Shown here piece after piece: positions 2,631-27,756 of a stretch of 64,000 nucleotides of DNA. The position numbers and the translations under genes are program-made. The notes under the pieces are model-generated. The model was given only the letters and a program-made list of their open reading frames with translations. It was not told the origin of the DNA and searched no databases. This DNA comes from Escherichia phage a20: sequence record OQ067374.1; one strand, given 5' to 3'. Numbering within the stretch: position 1 is the stretch's first letter; each line of letters starts with the position of its first letter.

Positions 2631-3194
2631 TTACCATTCCAATGCTAATTTTTTAAATTGTTTTTGTTCTTTCACATTTTTTGTAACTTCTTTGAGAAAC
2701 TCATCAGTGACCATGGCCTTCAGTTCTTTAAGGACTATTGGCAACTTGTTATTTTTTTCAAGGAGCCGCTTATACTCGGTAGCATCATTCATGTTGATTG
2801 TGTAATGTTTCATCAACAGTTTGATAACTAGTAACTCTGAAGTGTCTTCAACTAGTTTAGCCCATTTAGAGAATCGACGACCACGCGGAATTGCCGCCAT
2901 CATATAGTTGAAGTGTGCTTCATCACTTAATTCAGAACCGACTAAGTTCATCATGTAAACAGCTGGCATACATTCCGGGAACTGGGATAATGAGTTCTCA
3001 ACCATAAATTTTGAGTAGTCGACCTGAGCAATTGACATAGATTTCTTTTCATTAATAGCATTAATGATTTTAAAGAATTCATTCTCAGGTTTTTCTTTAA
3101 ACATATCAGCACATTTTTGAATCGCATCAGCGTCATTAGACTTCCATGCAATTTGGTGCTCGTTAAGCCGGACGTCATCATCGAATAAGTTCAT
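2631..3194 (-). CDS. 62: Clamp loader small subunit gp62
   Basis: 187 aa, [17 protein letters not shown]...[16 protein letters not shown] matches T4 gp62. Confidence 0.9.
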
Positions 3195-3195
3195 A

Positions 3196-4158
3196 TTATT
3201 TCCAAGTCAGTTCACAAGTCAATTGAAGAAGCATATACATAACATGTAATTCAATATTACTAGCTAGTCCATGAAACTTATTATTTTCGCCTGCAATTTC
3301 GTAAAGCGAAATAATACTTTTACCAGGTGCAACTTGGTCATAACATTCTGAAACTAATTTATCGATGAACCATGAATAATCTGCAGCATATTTTGGAGCT
3401 AATGCACGAAGTTGTTTGATATCTTTGTTCTTCATTGCTTCGATAACATCAGAGACTGTGCCACGGTCATTAGTTACGATAGACAGAATACCTGCATCGA
3501 GAACACCTTTAGACGAGTACTGGTCTAATTGTCCAATTGTACGACGAAAGTCCGGGAAGTTCTTTTTAACCAGAGCTGCAACAACTTTCATATCAGCGAT
3601 TTCGATATTTTCGTTCTTACAGATTTCAACCATACGATGAATCATTTTCTTCATCATCGAGATTTTATCTTCTTCGGTTGGACGTCCGAATTCGATAACT
3701 CGACAACGACTACGTAATGGTTCAATAATTCCATCGATGTTGTTAGCAGTAATAATAATAGAACAGTTACTAGAGAATTCTTCCATGAATGTACGAAGGT
3801 GCCGTTGTGATTCAGCAAGGCCACTACGGTCAAATTCATCGATAACGATAACTTTCGGCTTGCCTTCCATTGAGACTGAACGAGCGAATGCAGTTAACGG
3901 ACCACGCACAAAATCAATCTTACAATCAGAACCGTTGACGAACATCATTTCAGCGTTGATATCGTTACATAATGCTTTTGCTACGGTTGTTTTACCTGTA
4001 CCAGGAGAAGGAGAGTGCAAAATAATATGAGGAAGTTTTCCTTTAGATACTAAAGACTTGAATGTTTCATGGTCATACGCAGGCAGAATACATTCGTCAA
4101 TGGAAGAAGGACGATATTTCTGTTCTAGAATGTGTTCTTTGGAATTGATAGTAATCAT
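3196..4158 (-). CDS. 44: Clamp loader large subunit gp44 (AAA+ ATPase)
   Basis: 320 aa, Walker [11 protein letters not shown], Walker [10 protein letters not shown]4 gp44-like. Confidence 0.92.
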
Positions 4159-5391: not shown

Positions 5392-5583
5392 TTATTCGTA
5401 GAAGTCGGTAACTGTCCATGCGGAATTGCGATTAGACATTATTTTATTATACTCATCTTTAAAAGCAGATTTGAGCATTTGTTCAGTAACAATATGTTCT
5501 TCACCTGAAAACGTATTGGTCAAAACATATCTTTTAATTTCAGGGACAACGAGAAGATGTTGTCCGGTTGAATACTCCGCCAT
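5392..5583 (-). CDS. Hypothetical protein (45.2-like)
   Basis: 63-aa ORF in T4 45.2 position. Confidence 0.55.
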   Translation of the reverse strand: MAEYSTGQHLLVVPEIKRYVLTNTFSGEEHIVTEQMLKSAFKDEYNKIMSNRNSAWTVTDFYE

Positions 5584-5607: not shown

Positions 5608-5615
5608 TATAAATA
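5608..5615 (+). promoter_or_regulatory. T4 late-promoter-like TATAAATA box upstream of HNH gene
   Basis: Exact TATAAATA 45 nt upstream of ATG 5661; SD AAGGA precedes the ATG. Confidence 0.4.
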
Positions 5616-5660: not shown

Positions 5661-6377
5661 ATGAATTATAACTCAATATACGAAAAGCTTATCACCAATG
5701 CTAAATCAAGAAGTTTAGATGGTTATACAGAACGTCATCACATTATACCACAATGTTTAGGTGGAAGTGATGATGCTTTAAACTTAGTAGACTTAACACC
5801 GGAAGAACATTATTTGGCACATCAACTGTTGGTAAAAATCCATCCAGATAATGCCTCTTTAATATATGCCGCTCGTATGATGACCATATCATCTCCTAAA
5901 GCAGATAGAAGCAAAAACAAATTATTTGGATGGCTTCGACGTAAGAATCAAGAAGTTCAAAAGAATAAAGAATTCACTGCTGAAACCCGTAAGAAAATGT
6001 CCGAGTCTGCAAAAAATAAACCAAAGATTACCTGTCCACATTGTGGTTTAACTGGAACTGAAGGAAACATGCGACGTTGGCATTTTGATAATTGTAAACA
6101 AGGTCCAACGCCTAAAATAGTAAAACTTGATCAAGAAACAAAAGATAAAATAATTAAAACCATGGCCACGAAAATTTGGAAAGAAGATTCTTGCCCGTTT
6201 TGTGGCTTAACTACTAAGTTATCGGCGTTAAAGCCACATATAAAATTCTGTAAATCAAATCCTAACAGAAAGAAAAAAGAGGACAAGAAAATTAAATGTC
6301 CTCATTGCGATAAAATAGGGATCCCTGCTAATATGCATCGTTGGCATTTCGATAATTGTAAATATAAGCCTCATTAA
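5661..6377 (+). CDS. HNH homing endonuclease with three C-terminal zinc-finger-like repeats
   Basis: N-terminal HHIIPQCLGGSDDALNLVDLTPEEHYLAH (HNH motif); repeats CPHCG..RRWHFDNCK, CPFCG..HIKFCK, CPHCD..HRWHFDNCK. Confidence 0.85.
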   Translation: MNYNSIYEKLITNAKSRSLDGYTERHHIIPQCLGGSDDALNLVDLTPEEHYLAHQLLVKIHPDNASLIYAARMMTISSPKADRSKNKLFGWLRRKNQEVQKNKEFTAETRKKMSESAKNKPKITCPHCGLTGTEGNMRRWHFDNCKQGPTPKIVKLDQETKDKIIKTMATKIWKEDSCPFCGLTTKLSALKPHIKFCKSNPNRKKKEDKKIKCPHCDKIGIPANMHRWHFDNCKYKPH

Positions 6378-8062
6378 GAGGCTTTCATTACAGTAAATCG
6401 TCCAACTTTGCTCATTTGAAGATGTTGTCCATAAGCTTGTGGGTCATGGTCTCTGTGACTAATTATAAACACGTTTGCATCGGTTAGAGAGTTAAGAATT
6501 GTTGAAATAGCTTTAATACCTTCAGAATCAGTCGCGGAATCCATGACTTCGTCCATAATTAATGTATTGATTCTAACGCCAGAGACCTTTTCAGCGATAT
6601 CTCGCCATGTAAACAACAATGCGATATCGATACGTGCCTTTTCACCTTGACTAAACGAAGCATAACTGAATTCTTCACGTCCACGTGATTTTATAGATTC
6701 ATTGAATTCTTCGTCAATAGAAAACACATAATCAGCTTCCATGATTTTAAGATAATGGTTAATCTGCTTGTTGAACAGAGGCACATATTTTTTAATGATA
6801 GCACCTTTAATACCAGAATCTTTTAACATATCTGTGATAATACCGCGATGGTATTTTTCAAGAACGATATCCGATTTTGTTTTAATGATTTTATCAAGTT
6901 CTTTTTGAAGCAAAGCTATCTCATCGGCATGGTCGATAAATTCCGCCGAGGCTTGTTCTATTGCAGCTTTAACTTTCTTAGCTTTATCAATAGTGGCAAT
7001 CATTGCTTGTTTCTTGGTACGAATATCAGATGCAAGGTCCTGTTTAGTCTTAACATTAGCTCTATATTCGTCCACTAGGACACTCAGATTATCTCTGTGA
7101 CATGTAAGTTGCTCGAATGAGTGATTACATTCGTGAAGCTTATCGGTAATCTTAGAGACAATAGGATCACCCTGGTGCAACTGTGATGCACAAGTAGGAC
7201 ATGTACCGCCATCATGATACATCTTAATAACTTTGTTATATGAGTCAATTTTAGATTTAATCAAGAATGCTTCTTGTCCTATCTTGTTGAATGCCTCAGT
7301 AGGGTCTTCGTCAAGAACGATATTAAGTAGACGCTCGTTAGCTTCTTCGATTTCTGCTTTTAATGAACGAGCTTCTTTGGCTAGGTCGTCATACATATTC
7401 TGTAGACGCGCTACATTATCACCAGATAATTTCTTTTGGCGTTCGATATTCTCGTTATAAATCTTAATTTGTTGGATAACACCATCTTTCTTGGCATCGA
7501 GAACTTGTCCCTGGGAATTAAGTTCTCGAACTTGAGACTTATTGATTTTATCCATTTCAGCGAGTGTGCCGACTTCTAAAAGGTCTTCGACAAGTTTTCT
7601 ACGAGCAGGGGTGCTAAGAGCCATGAAAGGGGTATACCCTGCCGTCCCAAGCACAACGATTTGTTTAAAAGACGCGTATGACATTCCGATGCTACGTTCA
7701 AATTCTTCTTGGAAGTCACGACTGCTGGCAGATTCATCAAGACGAACACCGTCAACGGAGATTTCGAAAATATTGGGCTTTTGGCCACGTCTAATGAAGT
7801 ATTTTTTATCATCGAATTCCATCCAAAGCTCAACTAAGAGCTCTTTCTTGTTCGTGCTATTAATGATTTGTCCTTTCTTAACATCACGAAATGGTTTACC
7901 GAAAAGTCCGAAAGTAATGGCTTCTAACATCGTAGATTTACCACCGCCATTTTTACCAGTGATTAATGTCTTTTGGACTTTATCTAATTGGATATCAATA
8001 GGATTCCCACCTACCGACATGATGTTTTGATAACGAACACGATTTAATTTAAATGATTTCAT
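6374..8062 (-). CDS. 46: Recombination endonuclease subunit gp46 (Rad50/SbcC-like)
   Basis: 562 aa, Walker A GKNGGGKSTMLEAI, coiled-coil middle, zinc hook CPTC, T4 gp46-like. Confidence 0.92.
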   Translation of the reverse strand: MKSFKLNRVRYQNIMSVGGNPIDIQLDKVQKTLITGKNGGGKSTMLEAITFGLFGKPFRDVKKGQIINSTNKKELLVELWMEFDDKKYFIRRGQKPNIFEISVDGVRLDESASSRDFQEEFERSIGMSYASFKQIVVLGTAGYTPFMALSTPARRKLVEDLLEVGTLAEMDKINKSQVRELNSQGQVLDAKKDGVIQQIKIYNENIERQKKLSGDNVARLQNMYDDLAKEARSLKAEIEEANERLLNIVLDEDPTEAFNKIGQEAFLIKSKIDSYNKVIKMYHDGGTCPTCASQLHQGDPIVSKITDKLHECNHSFEQLTCHRDNLSVLVDEYRANVKTKQDLASDIRTKKQAMIATIDKAKKVKAAIEQASAEFIDHADEIALLQKELDKIIKTKSDIVLEKYHRGIITDMLKDSGIKGAIIKKYVPLFNKQINHYLKIMEADYVFSIDEEFNESIKSRGREEFSYASFSQGEKARIDIALLFTWRDIAEKVSGVRINTLIMDEVMDSATDSEGIKAISTILNSLTDANVFIISHRDHDPQAYGQHLQMSKVGRFTVMKAS

Positions 8063-23829: not shown

Positions 23830-24096
23830 TTACTTATCGCACTTAGCAACATAATTAGGCATATCACAGAATACAGAGCGAGTAACTACTCGGCCCTTTG
23901 ACCATGCTTCAGTTGCTTGTCCGGCCGTGCTATTAATATAGCTTGATTTAATGTTCTCAATACCCTGAGAATGTGATGCATTTACCGAACCGTTGGAAGG
24001 CCCAGAAGACTGGTTACCACCAGCTCCTGCACCTGTGGTAGCACCAACAGAGAATGCCATCATTACTGCGAATAAACCAATTACTAATTTTTTCAT
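23830..24096 (-). CDS. Small secreted protein (signal peptide)
   Basis: 88 aa, MKKLVIGLFAVMMAFSVGA signal, Gly/Ser/Asn-rich mature part. Confidence 0.6.
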   Translation of the reverse strand: MKKLVIGLFAVMMAFSVGATTGAGAGGNQSSGPSNGSVNASHSQGIENIKSSYINSTAGQATEAWSKGRVVTRSVFCDMPNYVAKCDK

Positions 24097-24127
24097 ATTT
24101 ACCTCAAGTTAAGGGTTATTTATCTAT

Positions 24128-25114
24128 TTATTTATAGTAAGAATTATGATTTTCGAGATAGACTTGCTCAAGGAAATCATCCCAGAAACTCATATCTACT
24201 TTTTGTTGCATACCGTTCTTAGCGGCTTGTTCCGATGCTTGTTCAACTTGGTCAACGATATCTTCTAGGAATTCTTGTACAGTTTTAAACGTATGTTTAC
24301 CAAGCTTAACATCGAGAATAAATGGAGCATCCTGAAGTGGGTAAACTAAGTCGCCGGTTTTGTAAATTTCCAATAGTTGAAGTCCACCACGACATGCATG
24401 ACTCAATGCTTTCCAGTCAATACCTTCGTTGGCTTCCGCCTTACGAGCACGTTCACCGTAGTTCTCTTCCAGTTTAACCAGGATGGCATTGAACTCTTTA
24501 TTGGTTAACGTATCTTGGAATTTACGGTCTAACAGATTATAGAATGTTTGCTTACCTGTTTTCTCGTTTTCGGTTTCAACCCACGAAGCAAATTCACCTA
24601 TAGGCAGAACATTCTTCATATGTGATAAACGAATTACTGCACCATTATCAAAGTATTGTCCCCATTCATTAGAACGTTTAAGGGCTTGACGAAGAACAGC
24701 CAGTCGAGAACCCTTGACACCGTATTTAGAAGCTTGCTTACGGACATACCCTAAATAAGATTTCATGTTAGTGGTATAGAAACGAGACCTGTTATCTTGA
24801 ATATACTTCCATACATCAGGCAAATCAGATTTAACTACTAGACTTTGTGGAGTGTGAAGCATATCTAATGCGACGGTTTCACCATCTGCAGCTAGTTTAA
24901 AGAAATATTTGAGACTATATAACTCATGGTCTACGTCGTCTTTTGTGTTCTTAGAAGATGTGTTATTCGTGTTCTTGCTCATGTGTTCTTTAACGTTACC
25001 GGTCAAGATATCACGAGCATGAGGGACATAAATTTCTTTAAAATCAACGTCAGATTCAGGGGTAGACGTTCCATAAAGGTGGCTACCAAAGTAAGCCTTA
25101 ACAATCGTTTTCAT
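24128..25114 (-). CDS. Pol-beta-superfamily nucleotidyltransferase-like protein
   Basis: N-terminal FGSHLYGTSTPESDVDF fits the hG[GS]...D.[DE] NTase motif; 328 aa. Confidence 0.6.
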   Translation of the reverse strand: MKTIVKAYFGSHLYGTSTPESDVDFKEIYVPHARDILTGNVKEHMSKNTNNTSSKNTKDDVDHELYSLKYFFKLAADGETVALDMLHTPQSLVVKSDLPDVWKYIQDNRSRFYTTNMKSYLGYVRKQASKYGVKGSRLAVLRQALKRSNEWGQYFDNGAVIRLSHMKNVLPIGEFASWVETENEKTGKQTFYNLLDRKFQDTLTNKEFNAILVKLEENYGERARKAEANEGIDWKALSHACRGGLQLLEIYKTGDLVYPLQDAPFILDVKLGKHTFKTVQEFLEDIVDQVEQASEQAAKNGMQQKVDMSFWDDFLEQVYLENHNSYYK

Positions 25115-25880
25115 TATTCACTTTCCTTTCATAATCTTCAATGAACTGTAATATTAAGCGTTGGTAATTTGATTTAGGATAACCCATTTTACTAATATGG
25201 GTTCCGAAAGCCCCACGCTTAGGTCGATTCAATTTAATCCAAAGTTCGTAAAGCATATCATAATCTTCCCAGTGTTTACCAGTTCGTTGTCTAGCTTTAG
25301 ACGCTTCAGACTGTCTCTTTTTAGTTTCTGGATTATCTAGGGCCTTTTTAACAGCTCTTGAATGCCGTTCTTTAACATCATCTCTCTTAAAGGCCTCTTT
25401 GATAGCAGTAGATATTTTTGCTTTAACTTCAGGTCTATTCTGTGCCTCTATTTGAGAATCTGACATTTTAGCCTTTATCTCAGGGAGGCTCATGGTCGCT
25501 GAACGCTTATCACGATATTCTTGTGATTCCCATATATCTTTCATTCTATTAGAGTGAATTTCTGAAAACTTTTCCCTTACGTCTTTATAGCCTCTTGAGG
25601 TTAATTTAAGATTTCGTCCTAAAGCATCTTCGCCTAAATTATAGAACGCCCAGTAAGCGTAAATCAATCCTTCAGAGTTTGGGTGAATTTTTGATAATAA
25701 CCAATGAGCGATAAAATGTTCCCTGGCAGTCAATAAAACTTTATTACTCGGGTCATCACTCCCTCCAATACATGAAGGGATTATGTGATGGGATTCAGTA
25801 TAATAATTCAACTCAGACTTATCACTGCCTCTAAGTTTTCCTCGTTGAATTATTGCATCATAACATTTGATATAATTCAT
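25098..25880 (-). CDS. HNH homing endonuclease (MobD-like by position)
   Basis: SHHIIPSCIGGSDDPSNKVLLTAREHFIAH HNH motif; paralog of ORF 5661-6377; Lys/Arg-rich C-terminus. Confidence 0.8.
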   Translation of the reverse strand: MNYIKCYDAIIQRGKLRGSDKSELNYYTESHHIIPSCIGGSDDPSNKVLLTAREHFIAHWLLSKIHPNSEGLIYAYWAFYNLGEDALGRNLKLTSRGYKDVREKFSEIHSNRMKDIWESQEYRDKRSATMSLPEIKAKMSDSQIEAQNRPEVKAKISTAIKEAFKRDDVKERHSRAVKKALDNPETKKRQSEASKARQRTGKHWEDYDMLYELWIKLNRPKRGAFGTHISKMGYPKSNYQRLILQFIEDYERKVNNENDC

Positions 25881-26353
25881 TTGCCTGGCTTGTATTCAAG
25901 AGTAGGACACACTTTAGCTTTACGAGCTTTTAAAAATTCAACGATAATCGATTTCTTACGTTCAATAGGCTCAAGTCCATTTTTAATTCGTTCTTGGTTT
26001 TGTGCAATGAGCTCAATTTCTTTATAATATTTTCTGTCGTTATATTTGTCTAACAACCAAGACGGACCAATTACCAACCCGGTAGCAATAAAAGCCATGA
26101 CTGCTACCATTAAAATGCCTACACCAATTGAAGCCAGAACTAATGTCCATAGACTGCTAAAAACAAAGAATTTAGTTAAAATTTCCTGGCCAATGATTGT
26201 GACTGCTGCTAAAATCGCAAATCCAATAATTGAAGCAGCCAATACCGGGAGAAACGTTTTCCAAAAATAAGCACACAACGTTTTCGGACGATTCCATGTA
26301 CTATTGAACGCGGCATAAATTTTAAAATGCCAAGAGTTTTCATTGATAATCAT
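25877..26353 (-). CDS. Hypothetical integral membrane protein
   Basis: 158 aa with 3-4 hydrophobic helices. Confidence 0.6.
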   Translation of the reverse strand: MIINENSWHFKIYAAFNSTWNRPKTLCAYFWKTFLPVLAASIIGFAILAAVTIIGQEILTKFFVFSSLWTLVLASIGVGILMVAVMAFIATGLVIGPSWLLDKYNDRKYYKEIELIAQNQERIKNGLEPIERKKSIIVEFLKARKAKVCPTLEYKPGK

Positions 26354-26362
26354 AATAATTCC

Positions 26363-26893
26363 TTATTTCAAAGTTGGGATAATAGAATCGAGATAAGCTT
26401 TAAGAGCAACTGCTTCATCTTTGTCTAATGTAATGATATGTTGACGAAGGTCATCAATTTGGCGAATAACTACGACATCACCGTCTTCATAAGAAGGATT
26501 AACTCCCAGGACTGTTGTATAGTCAGGGCGATCCTGATTTGTAATAAAAGCATTACGGCATTTAGCCCATTGAAGTTTGGCCTTTTTGGCTGTTTCAGAT
26601 TCCATGAATTCTTTCACCTTAGTGACAAATGTTTTCCAATTATTAATAGAAAAACATTCATCTTCGGTTTCGATATTAACCCCACTATAAAGTCCGTGAT
26701 AAAAACGAACTTGAAGGTCTTCGTCAATGTTAATTACAGATGCATGACCTGGTGGATTGAGTTTCAAAATCTTGTCTAGTTCCATAGGAAGAATAGTAAC
26801 AACATCATCTTCTTGCGTCAGAACGTACGCATAACCACGTTTTTCGATACATAAATCACCAAACAACTCAGTCGTTTCAATTACAGTTTTCAT
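26363..26893 (-). CDS. Hypothetical protein
   Basis: ATG 26893 (MKTVIETTELF) preferred over TTG 26905. Confidence 0.55.
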   Translation of the reverse strand: MKTVIETTELFGDLCIEKRGYAYVLTQEDDVVTILPMELDKILKLNPPGHASVINIDEDLQVRFYHGLYSGVNIETEDECFSINNWKTFVTKVKEFMESETAKKAKLQWAKCRNAFITNQDRPDYTTVLGVNPSYEDGDVVVIRQIDDLRQHIITLDKDEAVALKAYLDSIIPTLK

Positions 26894-27158
26894 ATTATTC
26901 ACCAATTAAAGTTTCAACAAAATTCACCAAATCATTCTGACGAGCATCAACCTGATTTCTATAAAAATTAAATAAGATCCATTTCACAGGTCATTTTACC
27001 ATACTCGCTTCAATAAGATTCATTACACCATTTACCATGTTATACGTAAACATCGGATAATTGTATTGTACTACAACATAAGCGATAAGCAAAAGTTTCA
27101 TTTTGTTCTCCATTTGTTTTGGTAGGACTACTATAACATAGTCCTACCAAGTTGTAAA

Positions 27159-27552: not shown

Positions 27553-27756
27553 AACGTTCTCCTCTAGTAAGTAAGGTTTACTATAACACAACCTGAGGAG
27601 AAGTAAACTGATAGATGCCAAAAAGCCCCTACTCTTCAATCAAAAACATTAACTTAGAAATTTTTTCTTTACGTGTCATAACGTTCTCCTCTAGTAAGTA
27701 AGGTTTACTATAACACAACCTGAGGAGAAGTAAACTGATAGATGCCAAAAAGCCCC
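27503..27756. repeat. Perfect 127-bp tandem duplication (2 copies) of promoter/SD/5' gene-end/terminator-stub cassette
   Basis: 27503-27629 and 27630-27756 identical base for base on my reading; no flanking microhomology. Confidence 0.9.
27580..27608 (-). promoter_or_regulatory. T4-early-type promoter (GTTTAC-N17-TATAGT); second copy at 27707-27735
   Basis: Minus-strand GTTTACttctcctcaggttgtgtTATAGT; upstream arm TTCTCCTC complementary to downstream SD GAGGAGAA. Confidence 0.45.

Follow-up and report, generated by a model that had tools for sequence, protein, structure and literature searches.

In the 64,000-nucleotide stretch of Escherichia phage a20 analysed here (OQ067374.1; hereafter the window), we found that the gene at 25098-25880 (minus strand, ATG start, 260 aa) is very probably mobD, known from T4, in its Mosigvirus allele. 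This gene encodes a free-standing HNH homing endonuclease, to which homing is attributed by analogy with its relatives. The gene occupies one conserved site, at which it is patchily present in every lineage examined. The mobD of the window is unexceptional; its family has long been known, and the gene is already annotated: a protein 100% identical to its product has already been deposited as 'homing endonuclease [Escherichia phage a20]', and the NRG-P0074 copy of the gene is annotated "homing endonuclease". The correct label for this open reading frame is mobD, which has little significance beyond annotation.

The 3-kb region 24000-27000 showed 99.2% identity to Escherichia phage BEU50 and 98.6% identity to NRG-P0074 (Mosigvirus), and the window is from a Mosigvirus, i.e. 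an RB69-like Tevenvirinae coliphage. Both neighbours of mobD lie on the minus strand. Upstream is a membrane-protein gene (25877-26353, 158 aa; PHROG 944, E 2e-52), whose TGA stop overlaps the mobD start in an ATGA at 25877-25880. Downstream is the candidate target gene, an nrdC.11-like nucleotidyltransferase of the RlaP/Pol-beta type (24128-25114, 328 aa; Pfam RlaP PF10127, E 7e-13; PHROG 388, E 2e-125), whose product has 80% amino acid identity to T4 NrdC.11. The 3' end of mobD overlaps the 5' end of nrdC.11 by 17 nt (25098-25114). The first-pass annotation had proposed this reading frame and its 17-nt overlap with the ATG region of the nucleotidyltransferase gene, and both the list of open reading frames and the sequence agree with it. 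The closest match to the window, BEU50 (OM632671.1), is an unannotated record of 193,190 bp, about 25 kb above the ~168 kb typical of Mosigvirus. It has six places that match the mobD HNH protein, and its extra length may come from terminal redundancy of the assembly or from additional homing endonuclease genes.

A tblastn search of 50,697 phage records aligned 258 of the 260 residues of the MobD product to T4 MobD (NP_049710; mobD, formerly nrdC.12) at 74% identity (E ~1e-128), and this alignment is conserved from end to end. In the same records, about 49 T4-type Tequatrovirus entries carry mobD at 74% identity. The closest proteins outside its own cluster were the MobD of VR26 (Gaprivervirus), E33 (filed under Dhakavirus) and TH40, with 78-81% identity. 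After these orthologs, the next-best matches dropped to 39% (MobE-like). Among 5.8 billion proteins clustered at 90%, only three clusters are of the MobD type (its own, one at 80% and one at 74%), and the next relative is at 41%. In T4, RB6, VR26 and E33, mobD directly precedes nrdC.11, and both are on the same strand. This position next to nrdC.11 and the 74% identity over 258 aa bear out the correspondence to T4 mobD that had been suggested earlier.

T4 MobD is full length, like the protein of the window (259 vs 260 aa), with the same HNH core and C-terminal region, and its gene likewise directly precedes nrdC.11 in the same orientation, with the same 17-nt overlap. However, the T4 gene sits in a Tequatrovirus background and that of the window in a Mosigvirus. 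In T4, moreover, a 75-nt spacer follows mobD.1 in place of the membrane-protein gene, whereas mobD of the window has the ATGA overlap with the membrane-protein gene. According to the annotations, the membrane-protein gene is present in T2, a48, VR26, VR7, E33 and the Mosigviruses and absent from T4 and RB6. When T4 (positions 2427-2500 of the locus L004) was compared with 25881-25955 of the window, part of the 75-nt T4 spacer (tgttataaatgcaaagc) was loosely similar to the 3' end of the membrane-protein gene; RB6, likewise without the gene, has the 75-nt spacer too. This similarity suggests that the membrane-protein gene was deleted in the T4 lineage.

VR26 and E33/TH40 share with the window the gene order mobD.1, membrane protein, mobD, nrdC.11. 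As a difference, MobD of VR26 and E33 is 254 aa long and the TAA stop of its gene shares 1 nt with the nrdC.11 ATG, whereas the allele of the window and that of T4 read 17 nt into nrdC.11. In the E33 record (locus L006, 2501-3265), only the last 142 codons (2837-3265) are annotated as 'homing endonuclease', while the full 254-codon mobD frame is open; the short annotation is probably an annotation truncation.

The dN/dS of mobD was 0.08 against T4 MobD and 0.045 against E33 MobD, with dS > 2, indicating saturated synonymous sites. These ratios point to purifying selection on MobD, and the divergence among its three types shows that they are old. Given this saturation, the allele of the window is an old one, distinct from T4 mobD. 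With dS saturated in comparisons among all three types, no sampled genome can be the donor of the window's gene. A sequenced phage as recent donor was thus rejected; nothing closer was found among the 5.8 billion proteins. A long residence of mobD in a rare Mosigvirus sublineage is conceivable. In WL-3 (MT968995), Pu-Krd-SF3 (PQ249397) and Pu-Krd-SF4 (PQ759884), T4-type mobD was matched only in two or three tblastn pieces. Such fragments suggest that these copies are frameshifted and decaying, in keeping with the life cycle of a homing endonuclease.

To describe the protein, we combined an alignment of 40 MobD homologs with an AlphaFold2 model (mean pLDDT 93.6). The N-terminal domain (residues 1-94, encoded at 25599-25880 on the minus strand) is an HNH nuclease domain of the beta-beta-alpha-Me type with core residues 29-65. 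E29, H31, H32, G40, N46, H55 and H59 are invariant in the alignment. The model has strands at residues 29-32 and 47-50 and a helix at 52-65 (DSSP), all with pLDDT >94. The alignment and the model therefore place a catalytic His, a structural Asn and a metal-binding His on a beta-beta-alpha fold. The earlier identification of the product as an HNH endonuclease is upheld by the invariance of H32, N46, H55 and H59, by this fold and by the match to PHROG 655 'homing endonuclease' (E 7e-56).

Profile and fold searches gave weaker scores. The Pfam HNH profile (PF01844 group) scored MobD at 16.9 bits (E 0.007), under the gathering cutoff of 21.4, and matched 27 of the 40 homologs at E <= 0.01. The top Foldseek matches of the model were HNH domains, but with E >= 0.3. 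A PDB sequence search with MobD returned no significant relative. For the I-HmuI type (PF13392/PF05551), there was no I-HmuI match in the PDB sequence search and none among the fold-search matches listed. In the His-Me classification, MobA-E are placed in the PF01844-type group, apart from I-HmuI (PMC5714182).

The remainder of MobD is a Lys/Arg-rich helical region (residues 98-199, 25284-25589, minus strand) and a small helical C-terminal domain (residues 200-260, 25101-25283, minus strand), which is possibly HTH-like and DNA-binding. Residues 95-199 form long helices in the model (pLDDT ~96-98), followed by a compact helical part at 202-259. Over residues 95-200, which are all helical, Lys and Arg make up 26%. 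A pattern search found six NUMOD3-like repeats of ~17 aa with the core E/D-x-K-x-K-x-S, in register at residues 98, 119, 132, 149, 166 and 183. The NUMOD3 profile (PF07460) scored MobD at 7.5 bits (E 5.5) and matched 20 of the 40 aligned homologs, the best at 3e-20. DNA binding is presumed for both the basic helical arm and the C-terminal domain.

The mobD insert is present in 2 of the 639 phage records that match the locus (at least 80% of the locus covered). The remaining matches, including ~90 records at 95-99% identity, cover ~73% of the locus, i.e. they are without the ~763-nt insert. Among Gaprivervirus/Dhakavirus records, 4/79 carry it. We found the empty site in moha, 348Ecol098PP and O157 typing phage 3 (filed under Mosigvirus) and in JK45 (filed under Tequatrovirus, locus match 96.5%). 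In these phages the TGA of the membrane-protein gene and the ATG of nrdC.11 share one base (...AAATGATGAAAAC...). Tequatrovirus T2 and a48 are empty in the same way, as are VR7, TH22 and SP18 of Gaprivervirus.

These relatives, with nothing between the two genes, support the earlier suggestion that mobD was inserted into a pre-existing operon, but the 17-nt overlap on which that suggestion was based is itself no sign of recent insertion. The mobD stop TAA sits inside codons 5-6 of nrdC.11 (GTT AAG), and the overlap is also present in RB6, as it is in T4. The empty-site phages have GTG AAA or ATG AAA at these codons, with no TAA. Judged from these sequences, the overlap is a normal part of the T4-type mobD/nrdC.11 junction and is inherited with it.

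We examined the flanks of the insert by aligning the window against four genomes with an empty site, moha, 348Ecol098PP, JK45 and O157 typing phage 3. Upstream, the stretch 25881-25955 (minus strand) is unlike the mobD-less Mosigviruses and is a putative co-conversion tract. About half of the differences in 1.1 kb lie within 75 nt of the mobD ATG (for moha, 15 of about 30 in 1116 nt), and the clustering seen with moha recurs against the three other empty genomes. The best identity of any mobD-less phage to the upstream flank is 94.3%. Within it, the empty site of Tequatrovirus a48 matches 52 nt (25904-25955) without a difference, with Mosigvirus-type sequence on both sides. Downstream, 5-6 of the 16-29 differences in 1115 nt fall within the first 25 nt of nrdC.11; the altered flank comprises the first 24 nt of the gene (25091-25114, minus strand), after which the sequence returns to the Mosigvirus type. 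The downstream substitutions create GTTAAG as in T4, which contains the TAA stop of mobD, so that the overlap moves together with the gene.

The altered flanks look like the co-conversion scar of a homing or recombination event. The finding that a48, which shares the 52-nt stretch, is itself without mobD counts against a homing reading. Filled and empty Gaprivervirus genomes show no consistent difference over the first 25 nt of nrdC.11, and the downstream substitutions of the window are therefore not a general immunity signature. We also rejected the idea that AAG instead of AAA at codon 6 of nrdC.11 marks all mobD+ genomes as immune, since TH22 and SP18, two Gapriverviruses with an empty site, likewise read AAG.

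The occurrence of filled and empty alleles across four Tevenvirinae genera, taken with the sharply bounded flanks, may record homing from an unsampled phage lineage, with the recognition or nicking site of MobD within ~100 bp around the junction. We hold this reading tentatively, at slightly less than even confidence. The highly conserved nrdC.11 segment encoding YFGSHLYGT is a candidate for the MobD target. If the locus does record homing into a target region of ~100 bp, the MobD target is directly testable: natural mobD+ and mobD- Mosigvirus pairs, with ~98% identical flanks, provide a clean substrate pair and a predicted region of ~100 bp.

Alternatively, mobD may have been present in the common ancestor of these genera and inherited vertically, with precise loss in most descendants, so that the window would represent a rare retaining lineage without recent homing. 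The insertion point is identical in four genera, and the divergence of MobD between genera (74-80% amino acid identity, dS saturated) is of about the same order as that of nrdC.11 (70-80%), both as expected from such descent. However, the mobD flanks of the window are ~98% identical to the mobD-less moha, so the carrier lineage is not basal, and the losses would have to be many independent, base-perfect deletions, each restoring the stop/ATG overlap. The rankings of relatives are also incongruent: MobD places VR26 and E33 above T4, whereas nrdC.11 places T4 above VR26 and E33. Moreover, the differences are sharply local, within ~75 nt and ~25 nt of the insert, and include the foreign 52-nt stretch. 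Pure vertical inheritance with many precise losses is thus less likely than homing, and we regard it as improbable. It is less probable still that MobD is a domesticated or defunct endonuclease that does not home and is kept for another role, e.g. exclusion of competitor phages without self-copying or regulatory DNA binding: strong purifying selection over the full length including the DNA-binding part (dN/dS < 0.1), the lack of any reported activity for T4 MobD (PMC2988022) and the tolerated loss suggested by the apparently frameshifted copies in WL-3, Pu-Krd-SF3 and Pu-Krd-SF4 would fit it, but every catalytic residue is invariant, and patchy presence, precise empty sites and altered flanks are the classic marks of a homing element that is, or until recently was, active.

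With respect to expression, no late motif TATAAATA was found directly upstream of mobD, and sigma-70-like sites near the gene were at chance level (20 found vs 16 +/- 4 expected). A promoter of its own was rejected on these grounds. Matches to T4-early-like promoters were located further upstream on the same strand, at 27130-27158, 27580-27607 and 27707-27734. mobD has been described as a promoter-less cassette (PMC2988022), which agrees with the arrangement here. Its translation is likely coupled through the ATGA overlap. A hairpin sequestering the ribosome binding site, as in I-TevI, segB and Aeh1 mobE, was also rejected as a general feature: the fold of the 111 nt round the mobD start was not significant in the window (z -1.35) nor in T4, VR26 and E33 (z -0.1 to +0.6). 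A perfect 10-bp inverted repeat (UCGUUGAAUU / AAUUCAACGA, at 25842-25851 and 25935-25944, minus strand) encloses the mobD start region. One arm of its stem lies in the foreign upstream flank and the other in mobD codons 10-13; T4, VR26 and E33 do not have this stem. The TATAAATA motif occurs at 24129-24136 (minus strand), at the very 3' end of nrdC.11 and upstream of an 88-aa signal-peptide ORF (23830-24096); its count across the whole window is at chance level.

The homing of MobE, MobA and the Seg enzymes (PMC2988022; PMC2790892) provides the analogy from which we infer the nuclease activity, target location and homing of MobD. mobD is read from the upstream early-operon transcript and probably translated by coupling to the membrane-protein gene through the ATGA. 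When a mobD+ and a mobD-less phage infect the same cell, MobD would nick or cut the mobD-less genome at or near the membrane-gene/nrdC.11 junction, and recombinational repair from the mobD+ genome would transfer mobD, along with short flanking stretches, to the recipient. The carrier genome would be protected from cutting by its altered flanks and by the insert. A 2010 review of T4 mobile elements gives the activity of MobD as 'ND' and its target as unknown (PMC2988022), and a full-text literature search found no later experimental work on MobD.

T4 MobE, which has been characterised experimentally, is the model for the probable mode of action of MobD. Like MobD, it has the architecture of the Mob family, an N-terminal HNH domain and a distinct C-terminal DNA-binding region, and its gene is a promoter-less cassette with a start/stop overlap with the upstream gene (PMC2988022). 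It differs in its locus (nrdA/nrdB) and target (nrdB), its similarity to MobD is at the family level alone, and its activity has been demonstrated (Wilson & Edgell 2009, PMC2790892). The MobE homolog of phage IME08 matched the MobD of the window at 39% over 95% of the length.

The window contains a second Mob-type HNH homing endonuclease gene at 5661-6377 (plus strand, 238 aa), which the first-pass annotation had described as a paralog with the same HNH core and a different C-terminus. BLASTP between the two proteins gave 40/75 identities (53%, E 3e-22), limited to residues 1-75 of MobD, and nothing aligned further. Both belong to PHROG 655, and these are the only two copies of the HNH module in the 64-kb window (tblastn with either protein). 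The shared core and the differing C-termini were thus confirmed: in place of the Lys/Arg-rich helices of MobD, the second protein has an unrelated C-terminus with three CxxC zinc-ribbon-like motifs. The term paralog holds in the broad sense of a family-wide Mob-type HNH module, but the two are not each other's closest relatives, since HNH residues 1-75 are equally similar in many other phage Mob-like proteins (43-57%). On this alignment, the two proteins are a common HNH module fused to different, putatively DNA-binding tails.

The second gene also differs from mobD in its locus and distribution and in lying on the strand opposite to its neighbours, which are a 45.2-like ORF (5392-5583) and gene 46 (6374-8062). 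A perfect T4 late-promoter motif TATAAATA was found at 5608-5615, 46 nt upstream of its ATG, and its stop overlaps that of the convergent gene 46 by 4 nt. It is present at >=99% identity in only 12 phage records, and homologs with 58-81% identity adjoin gene 46 in other genera.
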